Positions 1-35,630 of a DNA stretch of 64,000 nt are shown one piece after another. The DNA is from Malacoraja senta. Lineage: Eukaryota. The first letter of the stretch is position 1, and each line of letters begins with the position of its first letter. The translations under genes were made by a program, and so were the position numbers. The stretch is from positions 17,176,001 to 17,240,000 of the forward strand of contig CM075989.1 of the NCBI GenBank assembly GCA_038087875.1. The letters are read 5' to 3'. The notes beneath the pieces are model-generated. The model made no database searches. It saw only the letters and a program-made list of their open reading frames with translations, and was not told the DNA's origin.

Positions 1-275
1 CCTCAGAATAAAAGGACGTTTTTTTTAGGAAGGAGATGAGGAGGAATTTATTTTGCCAGAGGGTGGTGAATCTGTGGAATCCATTGCCACAGATGGCTGT
101 GGAGGCCAAGTCAATGGATATTTTTTAAGGCAGAGATAGATAGATTCTTAATTACTATGGGTGTCAGAGGTTATGGGGAGAAGGCAGGAGAATGAGGTTA
201 AGAGGCATAGACTGATCAGCCATGATTGAATGCAGAGTAGACTTGAAGGGGCAAATGACCTAATTCTGCTTCTAT
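1..275 (+). mobile_element. CR1/HER1-type LINE 3' end
   Basis: RVVNLWN-type ORF2 end and conserved 3' UTR. Confidence 0.8.
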
Positions 276-1769
276 CCCTCCTAGCCAGTGATTCAATGGT
301 TCATTAATATTGACACTTTTACAACCAAATGCACCACACTTCACACTTCATTTTTTTACTCAACATATAATTGTTTCTTGGTACAAACATAGTGAATTTG
401 GATATTTCCCCTGATTTAGATTTATAGTCATACAGACATACAATGTAGAAACAGGCCCTTCGGCCCAACTTGCCCACACTAACCAACGTATGCCATCTAC
501 ACTGATCCAACAGCCAGCATTTGACCGTAAACCTGTCCTATCTGCCTTATTTGTGTATCTAGCTAATCCAATCCATTTTCCCTCCCTCGGGTATTTGATG
601 CAACAATCTGTACACACGCAGATATTAGTTTTGTTCAGGCATAGATATTCTTGGCAAAAGCAATCAAGCAGCCAAAATGCTTTCCTTTACTGTTTGACAT
701 TTCAAAGGTATTAAATACAGCAGTTCTTCCTGAAATCATTCTCCTTTGGGGAAATGAGCCCAGACACCCAATTGTGAATTCTCACAGTTATCTATTCTTT
801 GTTTACCACCTTGCTAAAACACAGCGCGGCCAAAATATCTACAGTTGTCTGCAGGGAGATACTGTAAGTTTTCCCATTTCCACCATCCTTCTCATTTGTG
901 GTCGTCTCAGGCAATTACTGTCCTTTTGCTTGCTTCAGAATTTCATTTCAGTTATTGGGGTCAATACACAGGGCTTTCGCAGCAACTAAAGTGCACTCTG
1001 CAAAGATTTCTGTGTCAGTAATTACTTTTATATCTCGTGCTAAAGTCCATAGGAAAGGTGCCTCTCTACAATGCATTTCCTCTCTGCATTATGTCTCTGC
1101 CGATCTTTCAGTGAAGCAGTAAGGTGTTCAAGTTTACTTTTCCTCGGGTTACTTACAGCGGGTAATTTCTGGTGAAAAGTGCACATGCTGCTACCGTATG
1201 TAATTGTATTAGCGCTTAAAAGCAGAACACATTGCGGTCAGTCATCATATGTGATTCATTAAACACAACGAAAAGCTCATCAGTCCACTGGTGCCAAAAC
1301 TTCTAGCTTTCATCTTTCAGAGCACGAAGCTTTCTCTTTGGCTGGCTCATGTTTAACCCTATTACACTCATGAATTTATCTAACCTCCTCCTTTTCTGTA
1401 GTTGTTGTAGGTCTAGCTTTCTTCATTTTGTTGATTTCCACAGTTCTGATCTTGTTTTGTTTTTCCACCTTCCGAGTCTCTCTTAATGGAATTAAGAATT
1501 AATCGATTCATCCTCAATGGGCCAAAAAATAACATGGCCACACAATGGACTGAACACCCTGGTTGTACAGGTTAAAAGGAACTGCAGGTGCTTGTTTACA
1601 ACAAAAAAAAGACACTAAGTGCTGGAGTAACTCAGCAGGTCAGGCAGCATCACTGGAGAACATAGATAGGTGACGCTTCGGGTCGGGACGCTTCTTCAGA
1701 TTATAAGGAATGGGGGGAAGGGAAGAACACTGGAATAGAGGAAGAGCAGATCGAACCGTGGCAGGTTAG

Positions 1770-2500
1770 TTGTGCTGCACTGTAGAAACTACTTTGACTG
1801 GCTGCCTCATGACCTGTGGTGATTCCATACACAGGAACACAAGAGGCTACCAGAGAGCATTGGACACATCATGGGCAAAACCCTCCCACCATCAATATGA
1901 GGTGGTGCCTGAAAGTTGGCGTCTATCATCAAAGATCCAGGCCAGGCCCTCTTCGATCTTCAGTTGGGCAGGAGGTACAGAAGCCTGAAGTCCCACAGAC
2001 CAGGTTGAGGAACAGAGCGGGGGTCTTGCCTTCTTCCCCCTCAAGGCTGTGGGAGCTCCCTCCCACCCCCGGGGGCACAAAGACTGAACGGTGGCTGGTC
2101 AAGGAGAGAGATGACAGCTCACTGGCACACGTGAGGATTCGGACTGAGGTGAAAGCTGGAGGCTAAGCAGCAGCATGGGACTTGGGCGCTGGTCCAAGGG
2201 ATCAACTGCACGTCCTGGACGCGGCCTGCAGTGGCACAGACTGGTGGAGGGTACCTACAACTTTGCTTGGCCAGGTCGACCCAGCAACGCCGCCAGGACA
2301 ATGGGCCTTTATGGCCAGCTGCACCTAAAGCAACTTGAACTTTGGAAATGGCGCCAAAACTTGGTGACCCCTGTATATTGTCTCAGTGGACTATTTCTAT
2401 ACACTTTATATTTAATCTGTGTACTGTAATACTTTGCTGAACTGAATTAATTTCACTCTACTTTGGTACATATGACAATAAAGAACCATAGATTCATTCC
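1770..2500 (+). mobile_element. Degenerate Rex1/Babar-type LINE-derived sequence
   Basis: CTVETTLTGC.. ORF-end motif; ATTTCACT..TGACAATAAA tail. Confidence 0.5.
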
Positions 2501-3292
2501 TACAATTGTCCGGTTTATGAACTGATCTACATGTCTTCCACGACCCTAATCCTACTTTGGCAACAGAACACTAGGGTCCACCTCTTGCACTAGTATTGAA
2601 TTGTTTTCTAATTGTGTTTTGCACATATCTTGTTTCTTGCGCAGTGTTTGTACTGTCTTGCAGAATTTTATGGCGCAGTTAAAATAGCTGAACAGTTTGC
2701 TTATAGGTGCAGCTAGTTCTGATGTATTATTGTTCAGTGCTGCAGCTGGGATGTTCTCCATCCCCTTGGCTTTTGTCTTATTCAGCGCTCTCAGTCATTT
2801 CTTTGTATCTCGCAGAGTGAGTTGAATTGGCAAGAGACCAGCTTCTGCGCTTGTGGGGATCTGAGGAGGAAATCGAGATAGTGTGGCGGTACCTGGTGGT
2901 TGGCCGCGGGTAACGAACCCTCGGCTCAGGAGGGAGGAGTTGAGCATCTCGGAGTGGGAGGCGATGGGTCATGGGGTCCGAACCAAGGTATTTAAGGTCG
3001 GGTCACGGGGTTGGAGTTGGAAGCAGCACAGTGCAGTAATAAACACCATTTCATTCACACAACTCGTTTTCGCCTCATTCTTGGCTGCACCTGGAGTCCC
3101 CGCTACAATAGAAATCAAGGAGGAAGTCAATGTCCATCTGTTCAGCCCTTCCGGGTTCCTAATGCTTCATCCTTTCCATTCGCTCTCAGAAGCTGGGCCC
3201 TGCCATCGCTTCACCTCCCTCCATTAGCTGTTCAGATGTGATCGAGCCGCAGGGCTTCAAACTGATCCATTAGTTGTGGGATGACTCTACCC

Positions 3293-12663: not shown

Positions 12664-12839
12664 TCATTGCTTCGATAATACCTGCGACTCACTGCTACGC
12701 CACGGCTTGTTTGCGTAGAAGTCCTTGCAGGTCTGGCAGCAGCGTCGGTACCAGCGCAGGTCTTGGCACAGGTTCTTCTCGCGGATGAGTCTGCAGTACA
12801 CTGCCCAGTCATCTCCCAGGCACTTGTATGTTAGGGCAG
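12664..12839 (-). CDS. ADAMTS17: ADAMTS17 terminal coding exon, PLAC domain: (A)[57 protein letters not shown]
   Basis: 176 nt to TGA; acceptor tggcAG; PLAC cysteine pattern C...C...C...CCxxC. Confidence 0.93.
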
Positions 12840-13379
12840 CTGCCAGGTCAAGTCAGAGAGTTACAGGAGGCCCTTAACATGTTACAGCCTCTTATGTCAC
12901 CAAATCATGCTCAACATGAACATGCAATTAGTACGGGTGTCAGGGATCAAGGGGAGAATGCAGGAGAATGGGGTTAGGAGGGAGAGATAGATAAATAGAT
13001 CAGCCATGATTGAATGGCAGAGTAGACATTGGGCCAAATGGCCTAATTCTGCTCCTATCACTTATGACCTATTGAACCCCAACTCCACCTCTGTCCCTTT
13101 GATCCAAAACTTTAATTCACAGAAATATACTGTCAGTTTTGAAAGCCTGTACTGACCCCAGCATCATTGGCCTTGCAGTGTTGGGTGTTTCAGATTTCCA
13201 CTCCTTGTTTTATTTCTGTTTATTCATCCCATCGAGTCTATATTGGCTCCTGGAGCATTCCCAAAAATCTCAGTCTCCCATAACTTCCCGTAAACTATGC
13301 TCTCTCACATAACCTTCGACCCACCCCCTTGTCCACCCCATTTTGATAACCGTTCGTCGGACCAGGAAGCTCTTCAAAG

Positions 13380-26013: not shown

Positions 26014-26216
26014 AGATATATACAAAAATTGCTGGTGTTACTCAGCAGGACAGGCAGCTTCTCTGGATAAAAGCTAAAAATGGGTGATGTTTCGGGTCGA
26101 CACCCTTCTTCAGACGTCACCCATTCCTTCTATCCAGAAATGCTGTCTGTCCCGCTGAGTTACTCCAGCATTTTGTGTATCTTCAGTGTAAACCAGCATC
26201 TGCAGTTCCTTCCTAC
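26014..26216. mobile_element. Palindromic Penelope-derived repeat just 3' of an ADAMTS17 exon
   Basis: Inverted arms; minus-strand CTGAAGA..GAAACATC core. Confidence 0.7.
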
Positions 26217-26269
26217 TCGTTTTGTCTTATCCTACAAGGGTATTGATATTTAGGAATGGAGTTACATAC

Positions 26270-26422
26270 CTTTGACCATTCTCCAGTTCGCCATTTGTAG
26301 CAGTTGGAATGATCCTCGCACTCCTCTTCCTCTCGGGGCTTCGCTGCAAGGTCACATTTGCTTTGAGGGTTGGTGCAATTCACTGTCCTTAGATGGGTTC
26401 CTCGACCACAGTCTGACGAACA
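26270..26422 (-). CDS. ADAMTS17: ADAMTS17 TSP1 exon: CSSDCGRGTHLRTVNCTNPQSKCDLAAKPREEEECEDHSNCYKWRTGEWSK
   Basis: 153 nt; acceptor cctgtAG, donor AAG|GTATGT; phase 0 to 0. Confidence 0.93.
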
Positions 26423-30058: not shown

Positions 30059-30280
30059 AAACACATTATACAGTAAAATGTGAACAAATCTAAAAAAGGA
30101 CTACACTGATGAACATAATTCTTATAATGATTGCAAAGAAGCTGATTCACTGACAGGCACAGAGAGAAAGAGAGAGTGTGGGGTTACAGTGAGATTCACC
30201 ATTATACAGCTCATGTAACAAGATGCAAGCGTGGTCTATCAGTGACTAGACTTTATGTTTATTCGTTAAGAAGCATGTAC

Positions 30281-30485
30281 CTTTGACCAGTCCGAGGCTT
30301 CCCATATTGTGAGGCATTCACGGCCTTCACAGCCCTGCACTGTAGACAGTCTTGGACCAAGGCAGTAGAGGTTTCTTGTGTTGAAATAGGTGCCGTTTTG
30401 TAGCTGATAGACACAGGTCACGTTCCGAACCTGAGTTCCTTTACCACAGGTCCTGGAGCATGGAGACCAATTGCCTCCCACCCAC
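30281..30485 (-). CDS. ADAMTS17: ADAMTS17 TSP1 exon: (W)[68 protein letters not shown]
   Basis: 205 nt; acceptor actcAG, donor [20 protein letters not shown] is characteristic of ADAMTS17; phase 2 to 0. Confidence 0.94.
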
Positions 30486-31067
30486 CTGAGTCAAGAGAAA
30501 ATCATATCTGCATCTCAATCATTACCAAAAAAAGACCAATCATACGACCCTTTCCAAAGCAATTGAAGCAATGATCAGAGGTAAATTATGGAAGAGTTCT
30601 TTGTTTAAATCGATTGCTTCTATTCAGAATTTCAGTGTTTTCTTTTCTCAAACTAATTCAATAAAAAATTAGACAGGTGTCTGGAGTGCACAGTCAAGGG
30701 GGATATTGGAGGCAGGTTTAGAGGCACAAAGTTCAAATACGAGCTGGATTGGGACAGAGAAGGCAGGGGGAATGGGACCACCTGCATGCACTGCACACAG
30801 GAAGGCAGGATACTGATTTTAGAGAGGATAGTGAAATCAGGCAGTGACCACTCCACTGGGATCAATGATGTTTTCAGCATCTGAAGTTAATTCTCTTAGA
30901 TTCATCTAGTTTGAGGACATGACTGGGTACTGTAATAAATTCTGAGTAAAATATCCACATCTCTTTTGATTCGTTCATTTTTGGGGCAATATTTACACAC
31001 ATGTACATGACAGCTCATCGTAGCTTCACAACGAACAAGCATTAAAAAGCCATGATTAATTGTAATC

Positions 31068-31570: not shown

Positions 31571-32075
31571 TATCTTGGCCAATATCCCTCATTTGAAACA
31601 GTGGAACCAGGAACTGTTTGTCACCTACCGTAGTTATCTGTGTGCACATTCACCCATGTAATGACATGCACCCTACAACCAATCAATCCTTGATTTGTGA
31701 ATTTCTGCCTAATCTCCAAAGACATTGTGGGTACATGTCTTTGATTTATGAATCTGTTTTTTTGCAATAAAGAATGGGATGCCACTCTCTGCAATCTGTG
31801 AAAAACTGCCCCAAATGCCAAAATACATTTTACCCTGCCTTATTGATTTACAAATTTTTGCCTGCATTTTGACCAAATGAAATGTGTTTCTTATGTCAAG
31901 TATAGAATGGCAGTATCCCAACAATAAACCACACTTGACTGCAGTCGATAAACTACACATTAAAAACTGGGCTCTCTATAAATGGAAGCTGTCAATGCCG
32001 ATTGTTAACTGTGGAAATTAATGTCCAAGTGACTTGGGCTCTGGCACGTTTCTTTTTCGTTGTAGCGGCACTTAC

Positions 32076-32211
32076 CATGACTGGCACGGATGTATGTTGC
32101 ATCTCCGGACTTGGGGATCAATGCGAGCCAGGTGCCGGCAGTCGCTGTCGTTCGTTACTGTCAACGTCTTGTTAACAATCTTGGCGCAGTGGACAAGTGT
32201 TCTGCGCTCAC
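32076..32211 (-). CDS. ADAMTS17: ADAMTS17 TSP1 exon: (G)[44 protein letters not shown](W)
   Basis: 136 nt; acceptor tttttAG, donor TG|GTAAGT; phase 1 to 2. Confidence 0.93.
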
Positions 32212-33202
32212 CTAAAAACAATGAAGAGAAGAAACACCAGTGATGTGAGTTTGTTCAAGCGTTGGACCTTGACATTCACCTGTGTTACACTGGAGAAAGA
32301 GTCAAGATTCAAGATTGTTTTGTTGTCGCATGTACCAAACATTGTACTCTGTAAAAAATATAATGAACGAAACAAAGTTCAGTACACACACACACGCATA
32401 TATAGATATATACACCCACACATACATAAGTACATACATACATATACATAAAAACAAACAATAATAGTGCAAAAAGACCAAACCAATGCTGCCAATGACC
32501 CTGCAATGGGTAAAAGCAGCTCCTGTGGAGTGATGCAATCCAGTGCATGTCACTGGGAGTTCAGGCCCATATCACAACCATCGTCTGTTCACTTTTTCCT
32601 GAGGTTTTCATGTTCACTGGCATCATTGCTCCAGCATCAAACTTGTCCACATGGCATCAACAGTGGTGCGATGGCCAAAATTTGCCATCGACCAGATACT
32701 CAACCATTGCGGTCCAGAGGTGGGAGTTGCTGGTCTCTCCCAGCAGAAGCACCTTTCACTAACGCTGAAGGAACAACTTTAGTTGCGGTGCCCATCACTA
32801 CAAGTCTGCATTCAACTCACACTCAACATCCTCCCCGCCGTGAATCTCCAAATGCTTTGCCACAACCAACCCACCTTCTGCTGCCCGCTGGTCCAGAGCT
32901 GACACTCGTCTTCCAGGATGACATGGGTCTCCAACACACTCCTCACAGGCACCGCACCAGGCGGGAGGTGAACATGGCCTCGGTCTCGGCCCCAGCAACA
33001 CAGCTTCACATGAGACCACAGGTCGGTGCAGTGGTGCAGATAGTAGAGCCGCTGCCTCACAGCTCGAGTGACCTGGGTTCAATCCTGACCTCGGGCGCTG
33101 TCTGCGTGGAGTTTGCACATTCTCAATGTGACCGTGCGGGTTCCCCTTGGGTGCTGTGTGGATGCCTTCTCCCAAATGCCAGAGACATGCAGGTTGGTGG
33201 AT

Positions 33203-33402
33203 NNNNNNNNNNNNNNNNNNNNNNNNNNNNNNNNNNNNNNNNNNNNNNNNNNNNNNNNNNNNNNNNNNNNNNNNNNNNNNNNNNNNNNNNNNNNNNNNNN
33301 NNNNNNNNNNNNNNNNNNNNNNNNNNNNNNNNNNNNNNNNNNNNNNNNNNNNNNNNNNNNNNNNNNNNNNNNNNNNNNNNNNNNNNNNNNNNNNNNNNNN
33401 NN
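33203..33402. other. Assembly gap (200 N)
   Basis: Run of N truncating a V-SINE copy at about 33020-33202. Confidence 1.
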
Positions 33403-34964
33403 TCCCAGTGGAAGTCAGGATCCCCCTCCCTCAGCCCCAGGACCATCCCAGACGCTCCTGCTGATGTCCGTCACATCTCATGGTCTGCTGATCGAGGGGA
33501 GGGGGGGTCACTGATCCTCTCCACTCCACAAGGACAGGCTTCAAGTTCTGACTCCATGCTGGCTCAGAAACAGCAAGTGTTCCTCTCCCCTCGTCCAACT
33601 CCTCCCCACCCCCAGCAACAGGCAGACCCGCGCTGCAGTCCCATCGCAGCGTGCAGCCGCTCAGAGACTGCGCTCGCGTCCCAACAGAGAGCTGTCAGAG
33701 CCTACACCCAAGTGTGCCTGGTTGTGGTCCCCTCCTCTTCCCCCTCCACTTGGACAGATGTGATCCACCAGTCCCTTGAGATCGCTGACAGCAAATGTGG
33801 AGCCCTCTCCCAGCCATTCAGGAAACTTTGGAGCAAGCATGATGAAGGAAGCACCACTCTCCAGGAGCCGGCAGAGTGCTTCGAATGGTGTGACTGTAGT
33901 TTTAAAGGGCACCTGAAGAGCCATCAGCCGTATGTCTCAGTCTTGTGCAGCTGTAGAGATATTCATCTTGAGCTTTTCAACAACACTTGCTGTTTCTGAG
34001 CCAGCACGGAGTCAGAACTTGGAGCCTGACAGTGGCAACTTTAAACAATGATACTGAATTTTGTGACTTTGTAGAGAATTTAACACAGTATTTGGGAGAC
34101 ATCCAATGATGATTCATTGCTGAAGGAATGGTGCTGATTTGCTTCTGGAACTAGGTTTTTGCATTCAATCTCTGAAGCTGTCTCTCTGTACAATTCAACT
34201 CATAGGTAGGACTTAGTTCCCTTAGCCAAAGGATCAAAAACCAACAACATAGATTTAAAGTAATTGGTAAAAGGATTAGATAGGGGATAAGGAAAGATGT
34301 TTTTTTCAGCCAGAGGGTAAGAGAGGTCTGGAACTCTCCCTTATAGGGTGCTGAAGGCAGCAAGCTGTTCATCTCATTTACACAGTACTTGTGTGTATAG
34401 CTGAGGTGCTGTGACCTTCAGGGTACAAACCCACAGTGGGAAGATAGGATCAGTCCAGGTAGCTCAATTTTGACCGGCACAGTCACAATGGGCCAAATGG
34501 CCTCCTTCTTGGTTGTAAATATTCAATGATTTTTTTTTTCATGCATTTGTAAAACGTAAATCTACTGCTGCATGATCAGTACGCTTCTCCGCCAGATTAT
34601 TCGCTCACCATGTTTTGTGTTAAACACCTCTGTCCATTTTTAAAATATAGGTAGCAGTCCCATTCATTTTTGTTCAGAATATCAAAGAAAATCTACTTTC
34701 GTTCAGCTGTCAACACTTAAACAAGAGAGTATTGTTAAACTGCATCGACAGAATGTTTCGCCATTTGCTGGTCCTGTCCTACGATTTCAAGCAACATTGC
34801 AACAAAAGTTTGCGACGTCTGGCTCTGGGAAATGGCTCTCCCCTTTCCCTTACCCCATATCCAATATCCATCCAATTTCCTTCTGCAGAAAGTTACTGCA
34901 TCTTTTTCCATCAACCTGTCGGTAAGTATAACCTAGAATGCATCTGGACGACACAGATATCACA

Positions 34965-35018
34965 GGGGTGGGAGATTGCAACCTTCACGTGGTCCGCCCT
35001 GTTTCGACGAATGCAATC
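34965..35018 (+). ncRNA. Minimal HDV-like (CPEB3-type) self-cleaving ribozyme motif
   Basis: P1 GGGGUGG (34965-71)/CCGCCCU (34994-35000); P2 GAUUGCA (34974-80)/UGCAAUC (35012-18); P3 ACC/GGU; L3 UUCACGU; GU; UUCGA in place of P4; J4/2 CGAA. Confidence 0.8.
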
Positions 35019-35107
35019 AACCTGGCGTGCACAATCAAATAAGATCAAATAGAACAAGTTGTCCTACAACTTTAGGCTGTGCACGTCATACGCCAGAAGA
35101 AGAAGAT
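34965..35107 (+). mobile_element. Short non-autonomous non-LTR retroelement with ribozyme head and (AGA)n tail
   Basis: Direct repeat AGATATCACA at 34955-34964 and 35108-35117; 3' stem-loop; AGAAGAAGAAGA tail. Confidence 0.85.
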
Positions 35108-35396
35108 AGATATCACACATGCTGCACACTGCACAGGACCCTCAGACCAAGAGGATAGGCACAGAATGAGGCAGAGGTTGAGAACCCACTGAAATAAATC
35201 CACAAAACTCCCTCAACTATCAAAAAATCCCCCTGCAGACTAATTATTCAGCATTGATTATTTTCTATGGATGCCATTTTGAGCACAGCCAGTTATTGCA
35301 TAAGGAAAAGGACCAGGAAGGAATTTGAGTGAACAATTTATATGTAAAAATGCAGAGTAAATAACATTACTTTTCTACCTTGTTTTTAAATTTCCT

Positions 35397-35630
35397 AGAT
35401 GCAGACCTGGGTACAGGAGGTCTTCAGTCAGGTACAATAGGGCTTGACTCGGGTACAGAAAGTCAGTCAGGTATAAATTCCCCAGCTAGTCTGTACCTGA
35501 CAGAAGACCTTCTGTACCCAGGTCTGGATCTGCTGTATCTCGGTGTGGCCTTTCTGATCTTGGTGTGGGCCTGTTGTACCCAGTTGTGGACCTACTGTGC
35601 CCAGGTGTGGCAGGGCTGTAAACAGGGTGG
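35397..35630. repeat. Inverted array of degenerate 21-bp units
   Basis: Four xxGGTAyA units facing seven TGTACCxxG-like units; about 40-bp near-perfect stem. Confidence 0.75.

Follow-up and report, generated by a model that had tools for sequence, protein, structure and literature searches.

Why does a short repeat begin at precisely the base where a ribozyme folded from its own first nucleotides is predicted to cut? This question is raised by a locus in the 1.94-Gb assembly of Malacoraja senta (GenBank GCA_038087875.1), within a stretch of 64,000 nt on contig CM075989.1 (C13 in our numbering; C13:17176001-17240000, forward strand). This stretch is called the window below, and positions without a contig name are counted from its first base. 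The repeat, which we named SINE-W together with its family in the genome, had been described in a sequence-only reading of the window as resembling a short interspersed nuclear element (SINE) and as headed by a minimal ribozyme of the hepatitis delta virus (HDV) and mammalian CPEB3 type. In this work we examined the element, its sister copies and its relatives in the same genome by computation. Our reading, to which we assign a probability of about 78%, is that SINE-W is a ribozyme-headed non-autonomous retroposon that would cut its own 5' end and would be copied from its (GAA)n tail by an RTE-like long interspersed nuclear element (LINE).

Anatomy of the Element and Its Ribozyme Head

Direct reading of 34955-35117 bore out the earlier description of the boundaries. 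The SINE-W copy is 143 nt long (34965-35107, plus strand) and stands between perfect 10-bp target-site duplications (TSDs), AGATATCACA at 34955-34964 and its exact repeat AGATATCACA at 35108-35117. The base that directly follows 34964 is G34965, which is element position 1 and also the G before which the ribozyme was expected to cut; the predicted cleavage site thus lies between A34964 and G34965.

Positions 34965-35018 (plus strand, 54 nt) are assigned to a minimal ribozyme that belongs to the HDV family, is of the CPEB3 sequence type and lacks P4, on the evidence of a structure descriptor, a narrow Rfam scan and covariation. The 5' strand of P1, GGGGTGG (34965-34971), pairs with CCGCCCT (34994-35000) and includes two wobbles, a G.U at the first pair (G34965.T35000, at the cleavage site) and a U.G at the fifth. 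The pseudoknot helix P2 consists of GATTGCA (34974-34980) and TGCAATC (35012-35018). P3 (34981-34993) is formed by ACC (34981-34983) and GGT (34991-34993) around the loop L3, TTCACGT (34984-34990). The segment 35001-35011 holds J1/4 GT (35001-35002), the linker TTCGA (35003-35007) and J4/2 CGAA (35008-35011), and the first base of the latter, C35008, is the candidate catalytic C. P4 is absent, the 5-nt linker being the sole sequence between GT and CGAA. The key bases of HDV-type ribozymes are present, namely the G34965.T35000 wobble, C34986 facing G35001 (P1.1) and C35008 followed by G-A-A. Every helix, loop and junction of the layout proposed in the sequence-only reading, including the C at 35008, was found in the place given for it. 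Such a head would be predicted to cleave itself site-specifically in a manner dependent on the C of J4/2.

The window was searched on both strands with a strict HDV descriptor that allowed no mismatches. It called for a P1 of 7 bp whose first pair is G.U, a P3 of 3 bp, an L3 of 7 nt whose third base is C and, behind P1, a G, a spacer of 3-60 nt, C-N-A-A and a P2 of 6-8 bp. A single match was found, at 34965-35018, and a match appeared in 0/200 first-order Markov simulations of the window, so that the fold is beyond chance. An Rfam scan of 34955-35030 at E<=10 matched two of 4227 families, CPEB3_ribozyme (RF00622; 16.4 bits, E 0.02) and HDV-F-prausnitzii (14.4 bits). In the alignment to the Rfam consensus, GGGG, UUCACGU, CCCUGU and CGAAU are common to the SINE-W head and CPEB3_ribozyme, and the UUCACGU loop, the CCCU-GU junction and the CGAA that the sequence-only reading had named for the mammalian ribozyme can all be seen there. 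The nested minimum free energy structure of the 54 nt yields P1 and P3, with the pseudoknot helix P2 outside that score.

Downstream of the ribozyme, the body (35019-35094, plus strand) is predicted to fold with an 11-bp long-range stem (35023-35033/35078-35088) and a hairpin at 35056-35072, and it is followed by the (GAA)n-type tail AGAAGAAGAAGAT (35095-35107, plus strand), which differs in length among copies. Folded together, body and tail (35019-35107, 89 nt) give the 11-bp stem plus a 7-bp hairpin at -21.2 kcal/mol (z = -2.76; 3/200 shuffles as good). The stem region is a plausible 3' protein-binding domain and might serve to bind the reverse transcriptase (RT).

Copies of SINE-W in the Genome

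SINE-W is a young, very abundant, multi-copy dispersed family. An exhaustive count of a 22-nt core with at most 2 mismatches gave 8,458 matches in the genome (4,252 forward and 4,206 reverse), and the reversed-core control gave 0 matches in the same genome; the window copy is thus far from a single one. A BLAST search with the element returned 276 first-look candidates, of which 40 were scored. The scored matches are 96-100% identical to the query, and they start at base 1 in 34 cases, at base 2 in four, and at bases 5 and 9 in one each. In a set of 40 unique copies from 60 loci, 32 open with GGGGTGG. An exact TSD of at least 7 bp within 2 nt of the start accompanies 25/40 of these copies (TSD length 7-12 bp) and abuts the first G in 21/40. 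The (GAA)n tails vary in length. Both the uniform 5' end at the predicted cleavage-site G and the TSDs abutting it, which had been predicted for sister copies, were therefore recovered.

The same boundary was seen in public data. Near-identical words of SINE-W occur in 24 listed public runs (nine organism labels, 11 studies), all of which are contigs, with none recorded as RNA. Contigs of four of these runs, placed on 34800-35300, cover it within 34953-35122 only. Unlike flanks of the run contigs cluster at 34964-34966 (51 in run X1, 18 in X7, few in X3 and X4) and also at 35105-35106; the pile-up at 34964-34966 indicates the same 5' boundary in those data sets.

Common variants of the run contigs are 34996 G>A, 35009 G>T or G>A, 35023 T>C and 35039 A>G, which leave L3, P2, P3 and C35008 untouched. 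The change at 34996 converts the U.G of P1 to U-A and keeps the pairing, as does C>T at element position 31, which gives G.U. Position 35009, which directly follows the candidate catalytic C, varies as in the CTAA of LINE-B, a relative described below. Variants recurring at element positions 8, 31, 42 and 45 leave the helices unbroken. The candidate catalytic C44 is altered in 1/39 copies vs 7/39 for its CpG partner G45. This contrast, together with the helix-sparing variants, may be a weak hint of selection on the source copies. Most members of the family retain every core position and have the three helices unbroken. A genome search for a version of the SINE-W ribozyme with full P4 found none, the one match being a SINE-W copy with a small duplication.

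Two observations on individual copies were made. At locus L048 (C14:9054334-9057413, about 1420-1585) a rearranged SINE-W consists of bases 1-27, inverted 48-71 and then 33-142, and may be a template-switch product. The loci L009/L010 and L007/L019 hold pairwise identical SINE-W copies and flanks on different contigs and represent segmental duplicates or uncollapsed haplotigs.

With its 143 nt, many copies, variable TSDs and a (GAA)n tail like that of the LINE-A described below, SINE-W has the features of a non-autonomous retroposon of the kind that lacks long terminal repeats (non-LTR). It departs from the classical definition of a SINE, being SINE-like without an RNA polymerase III (Pol III)-type head. 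ARAGORN found 0 tRNA genes in the element, and Rfam scans of a 2-kb stretch and of the narrow interval gave no match to other small-RNA families, including tRNA, 7SL and 5S. The best matches to the A and B box consensus sequences have 3 mismatches each, and they were equaled in 1754 (A box) and 1319 (B box) of 2000 shuffles. The absence of Pol III boxes claimed in the sequence-only reading therefore stands. A miniature inverted-repeat transposable element (MITE) or other DNA transposon was considered and rejected on account of the lack of terminal inverted repeats, the variable TSD length and the microsatellite tail.

Relatives With CPEB3-Type Heads

We searched the genome with the Rfam model of the mammalian CPEB3 ribozyme; 60 matches were listed and 48 places were read. 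Among the 60 listed matches, 39 score above the 35-bit gathering cut-off (best 64.2 bits), and 14 prokaryotic control genomes gave no CPEB3 match above it. The places that were read belong to several families, in which differing upstream flanks meet the ribozyme right at the first G. The RF00622 scores are 52.8 to 64.2 bits for LINE-A, 54.5 for LINE-B, 36.3 for a second SINE (SINE-E), 51.4, 47.7 and 43.4 for the old family C, and 45.8 and 38.4 for the old family D. With relatives passing the cut-off of the mammalian model, the earlier suggestion that CPEB3-like ribozymes have a mobile source is strengthened.

The LINE-A head reads GGGGATC..GGTAGAA GCG TTCACGT CGC GATCCCT GT, an 8-bp P4, CGAA and TTCTACC. 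In the LINE-A copy L069 (about 3.1-3.15 kb) the ribozyme runs from about position 86, with its 3' end some 30 nt upstream of a 934-aa open reading frame (ORF, 199-3003), and the tail lies at about 3241. Pfam matched only Exo_endo_phos, Exo_endo_phos_2 and RVT_1 in this ORF, and no RNase H. L069 ends in ..CACGAAAAGAAGAAGAAGAGG, its tail is of the (GAA)n type, and its TSD is ACAGAACAAAA. Among LINE-A copies, protein identity is 96-97% and open frames reach 1014 aa. The RT part of LINE-B is 58-61% identical to that of LINE-A; this family has CTAA as J4/2, ends in ..GACACGAAAGAAAAAG and is flanked by the TSD CATCTGTAA. Just 16 heads of LINE-A and LINE-B were found genome-wide, which is what 5' truncation of most LINE copies would lead to.

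RTE elements, as reportedly described by Malik and Eickbush in 1998, are about 3.2 kb long and have a single ORF with an N-terminal AP endonuclease and an RT, and a very short 3' untranslated region (UTR) with short tandem repeats. LINE-A is close to the length of this class and has a single endonuclease and RT ORF and a short repeat tail, and by these features we regard it as RTE-like. LINEs of the Ingi/Vingi type have an RNase H domain after the RT and are longer elements; this identity was rejected for LINE-A, which has no RNase H and is 3.1 kb long. The earlier guess at a partner of Ingi/Vingi or RTE type thus held in its RTE half, in that an RTE-like LINE carries the same type of ribozyme and tail as SINE-W, and its Ingi/Vingi half was dropped.

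Families C (loci L076, L078, L080, L086 and L089) and D (L079, L082, L088 and L090) are old, short CPEB3-type ribozymes with about 45 nt of common sequence past the ribozyme and divergence among the copies beyond it. No other family comes as near to the mammalian CPEB3 consensus as family C, with near identity in P2, P3, L3, the 3' strand of P1, P4 and J4/2; to judge from these segments, the likeness looks like homology rather than a likeness of fold alone.

SINE-E, about 177 nt long and flanked by TSDs, also has a P4-less CPEB3-type head (GT TTCCA CCAA). It was read at loci L085, L087, L091-L105 and L107-L112 (e.g., L093:113-300), and its core has 74 matches genome-wide. Its 3' half contains a 13-bp hairpin, and it closes with a (GAA)n-type tail and a GGACTCGATAAGAAG-type end. 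The register of its P1 is ambiguous, since most copies begin with four G and the 3' strand of P1 fits five. In the 3' flanks of two copies (L093:300-470 and L110) lies a repeat unrelated to the adjoining SINE-E that ends in ..GGATCGAACC..GGCAGCAACTCTACC.., an end that resembles a tRNA-related SINE.

A third RTE-like family with many copies, LINE-X (L113, L114 and L116; C4794:29050-32800), shows 53-55% identity to the RT part of LINE-A. Its ends, which are known from one copy, include a 5' UTR of about 115 nt that starts with CTGCTAATAC and is without a CPEB3-type head; an Rfam scan of the 5' end (L114, L116) was negative at E<=0.01.

Covariation Across Families

Next, the heads were compared in an alignment (A2) of 12 hand-picked rows out of 49 (one SINE-W, two SINE-E, one LINE-A, two LINE-B, three family C and three family D), under a pseudoknotted structure written by hand and with the old families represented by decayed single copies. 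Standard pairs fill 90.0% of the 259 cells, vs 36.7-47.7% when the 3' partners were slid by 1-3 columns; the values for single helices include 88% in P1 and 95% in P2. Both sides have changed in 17/25 pairs (P1 3/7, P2 6/7, P3 2/3 and P4 6/8), and 0/500 shuffles of the alignment equaled the observed pairing, the compensated pairs or the covariation score. The L3 columns T20, T21, C22, C24, G25 and T26 are invariant, and the columns of the HDV key bases are invariant or nearly so. SINE-W differs from every LINE in the sequences of P1, P2 and P3, which are still paired, and it contributes unique pairs to P2 (U-A and C-G) and P3 (A-U and C-G). The compensatory changes in P1, P2 and P3 that the sequence-only reading had proposed to look for are found across families, with P4 in addition.

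Proposed Mobilization and Candidate Partner LINE

If these parts work together, mobilization of SINE-W may proceed as follows. A source copy would be transcribed by read-through as part of a longer RNA, and its head would fold as a nested double pseudoknot and cut just 5' of G34965, leaving this G as the first base of the RNA. The endonuclease and the reverse transcriptase would be provided by an RTE-like LINE of the same genome, of the kind that bears this ribozyme in full-length form at its own 5' end and has a (GAA)n tail as well. Reverse transcription would be primed on the tail at the nicked target and would run to the cleaved 5' end, and the products would be copies opening at the same G, with 7-12-bp TSDs. 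In this scheme we infer that the head cuts itself, that source copies are read through, that the tail is recognized and which LINE is the partner.

The (GAA)n tail is common to SINE-W, LINE-A and SINE-E. LINE-A is probably the best candidate partner because it has the same ribozyme type, the same tail and similar youth. Microsatellite-like tails that affect priming have been described for RTE elements (PMC6007223). The sequence-only reading had proposed to search for an autonomous LINE that shares both ends with SINE-W; LINE-A has the ribozyme type and the (GAA)n tail, and no 3' homology beyond the tail was found. A search for the partner through the 3' 80 nt of SINE-W led to 30 loci, and all were full SINE-W copies with the ribozyme head.

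Evidence Against and Alternative Explanations

A number of results weigh against a SINE-W head that cuts and a LINE that copies from the tail. The search with the CPEB3 model, by which the sequence-only reading had proposed to check the head, recovered CPEB3_ribozyme in the narrow scan, but at 16.4 bits the score is below the 35-bit cut-off, and the Rfam scan of the 2-kb stretch at E<=10 gave no ribozyme match. The nested energy of the 54 nt is -12.4 kcal/mol (z = +0.92), with 168/200 shuffles as good, and the loss of P4 may reduce activity. Base 1 is altered in 4/40 unique copies, another 4/40 are truncated or rearranged, and 15/40 are without an exact TSD of at least 7 bp under the rule used. 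Among inserted copies, variant letters amount to 4.1% in the ribozyme vs 2.6% in the body, which would be expected if dead, CpG-rich copies decay neutrally; it lends no support either way and says nothing about the source genes. The structure of alignment A2 was drawn from the same sequences with 12/49 rows chosen, which favors the observed pairing over the slid controls. Finally, the bodies of SINE-W and SINE-E match the 3' ends of LINE-A, LINE-B and LINE-X no better than shuffles do. The 3' alignments of the SINEs to the LINEs comprise just the tail and a few preceding bases, and with no 3' similarity beyond the tail the LINE partner is a putative one.

SINE-W might instead be mobilized by another RTE-like family (LINE-X or an extinct relative) in place of LINE-A or LINE-B, with head and tail derived from different lineages; we consider this possible but doubtful. 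The LINE-X copy has a GAAGAAGA-type tail, its last bases resemble the end of SINE-E, and just before the tail its 3' end contains GAGATTGCAAC, identical to SINE-W positions 8-18 (11 nt). This identity has a shuffle p of ~0.017 uncorrected and is not significant after correction for 12 comparisons. Elements that combine the head of one LINE with a different LINE's tail have been described (PMC3414825). On the other hand, the evidence from LINE-X comes from one copy, and the pre-tail sequence of SINE-W, ACGC[A/C]AGAAG, is about as close to the ACGAAAAGAAG of LINE-A. LINE-A is also young like SINE-W, as judged by its protein identity and long open frames, and significant 3' similarity beyond the tail was found for none of the LINEs, LINE-X included.

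The main rival, less probable still and in our view unlikely, is that the head is a relic that no longer cuts or needs to cut, with the uniform 5' end set by an internal promoter from which transcription begins at this G, as in the case of Pr77 of L1Tc/NARTc. The missing P4, the low score of SINE-W on the CPEB3 model and the unremarkable nested energy would be compatible with a relic, the cleavage predicted for the SINE-W head is read from its letters, and a promoter and a ribozyme in one 5' head are documented in trypanosomes (PMC3383444). However, a promoter of the usual kind left no tRNA, 7SL or 5S signal in the scans described above, and the A and B boxes are at chance level. A relic would also have to account for core positions and helices that are intact in most copies, for frequent variants that keep the pairing while C44 is changed in 1/39 copies, and for the same P4-less core kept in two independent SINE families. 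P4-less HDV-like ribozymes are a known natural class (PMC10879173), and the related LINEs carry their ribozyme at the exact terminus, which is standard for ribozyme-processed elements. A chance fit of ribozyme-like pairing in an ordinary repeat is negligible, for although short helices are easily found and the folding energy alone is not significant, the descriptor matched none of the simulated windows, only CPEB3 and HDV families answered among 4227, the relatives score above the CPEB3 cut-off and 17/25 pairs are compensated.

Genomic Context of the Window Copy

Pfam was run on the 60 longest ORFs of the window and on 80/804 short Cys/Trp-rich ORFs. The 60 longest gave nothing relevant; ADAMTS exons were found just among the short Cys/Trp-rich ORFs, all on the minus strand: TSP1_ADAMTS exons at 32075-32254, 30269-30490 and 26216-26422, and an ADAMTS_C/PLAC exon at 12667-12852. 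The SINE-W copy therefore lies antisense in an ADAMTS-family gene, in line with the earlier placement, and would not cut that pre-mRNA. As a dispersed multi-copy element whose window copy is in this gene, SINE-W does not correspond to the CPEB3 locus. A 515-aa open frame at 32452-33996 (plus strand) was discarded as an artefact of a run of N at about 33190-33400, which is either a gap of the assembly or a stretch of withheld letters.

A long near-perfect hairpin of about 120-140 nt lies at 35394-35537, 300 nt downstream of SINE-W. It gave weak matches to plant and animal microRNA precursors on either strand (MIR1861 46.2 bits vs a cut-off of 88) and resembles an inverted repeat of the MITE type more than it does a microRNA.

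Comparison With Known Ribozyme-Headed Elements

HDV-like ribozymes at the 5' ends of RTE, R2, Baggins and other non-LTR elements were reportedly described by Ruminski et al. in 2011 in the Journal of Biological Chemistry, and the abstract of that paper reportedly links LINEs with HDV-like ribozymes and SINEs with hammerheads. In contrast to this, an HDV-like ribozyme heads a SINE here, and the LINE heads are of the CPEB3 type, above the Rfam cut-off. Like the RTE, R2 and Baggins class, LINE-A and LINE-B have the ribozyme at the exact 5' terminus, near a single ORF and with no evident promoter (PMC6765202).

The R2 short internally deleted elements (SIDEs) and the R2/R1 hybrid SIDEs of Drosophila consist of an HDV-like ribozyme joined to the 3' end of a LINE (Eickbush and Eickbush, 2012; PMC3414825). 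They resemble SINE-W in being short non-autonomous elements whose 5' end is defined by such a ribozyme, and they are propagated by the target-primed reverse transcription of the LINE. Unlike SINE-W, they are rare, are site-specific in ribosomal DNA and share a clear 3' UTR with R2 or R1, according to the same source. SINE-W, in turn, is dispersed through a vertebrate-type genome in thousands of copies, is P4-less, and has just the microsatellite tail in common with its candidate LINE. In the trypanosomatid elements NARTc, RIME and SIDER, which have the L1Tc ribozyme/Pr77 head, the ribozyme likewise forms the first bases of the non-autonomous partner of a LINE (PMC3185411, PMC3383444, PMC4035085). 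As these sources present them, however, those heads belong to the Ingi clade, are the same 77 nt as in the LINE and double as promoters, whereas the helices of SINE-W differ from those of every LINE, its candidate LINE is RTE-like, and its head is not known to act as a promoter.

The short linker in place of P4, with P1, P2, P3, L3 and J4/2 kept, is shared with the drz-Mtgn and theta ribozymes (PMC10879173). These are reported there from metagenomes and gut phages, beside tRNA genes, whereas the SINE-W head belongs to a eukaryotic retroposon. The Perere-3 elements of Schistosoma mansoni, with twister-variant ribozymes at the 5' end, have TSDs directly beside the cleavage site as SINE-W does, and this arrangement was taken as a footprint of cleavage before retrotransposition (PMC8501958); the ribozyme class and the phylum differ from those of SINE-W.

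Implications for the Origin of the CPEB3 Ribozyme

The mammalian CPEB3 ribozyme (RF00622) resembles the SINE-W head in L3, the P1-GU junction and CGAAU, and family C adds P2 and P4 to this list. It differs in being a single-copy, conserved intronic ribozyme with full P4, whereas SINE-W is a multi-copy transposon head without P4 that scores 16.4 bits. A 2021 study reported the CPEB3 ribozyme as not found outside mammals (Bendixsen et al.; PMC8233481). Our literature search, with supplements, Dfam and Repbase outside it, did not turn up any account of non-mammalian retrotransposons that carry CPEB3-type ribozymes.

The principle is not new, as LINEs that end in a ribozyme and a handful of short derivatives headed by one are already known. 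What is new within the literature searched is a vertebrate-type SINE with thousands of young copies and an HDV-family head instead of a Pol III gene, which adds a promoter-less class to the usual range of SINE heads. Also new are helices distinct from those of any LINE and a tie to the mammalian CPEB3 ribozyme at the level of sequence. Twice in eukaryotic mobile elements the ribozyme has been reduced to a P4-less core, which in SINE-W measures 54 nt and makes a compact natural ribozyme.

SINE-W, its sister copies and the related full-size elements hint at the origin of the mammalian CPEB3 ribozyme. We see even odds that the latter was domesticated from the 5' head of an ancient vertebrate lineage of RTE type, or of one of its ribozyme-headed SINEs, that landed in a CPEB3 intron. 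If this is true, the lineage would still be alive in this genome, the CPEB3 ribozyme would be no de novo invention of mammals, and the heads described here would give reconstructions of its ancestral forms the outgroups that they have so far lacked. Should the homology hold, such outgroups would allow a direct test of where this memory-linked ribozyme came from.

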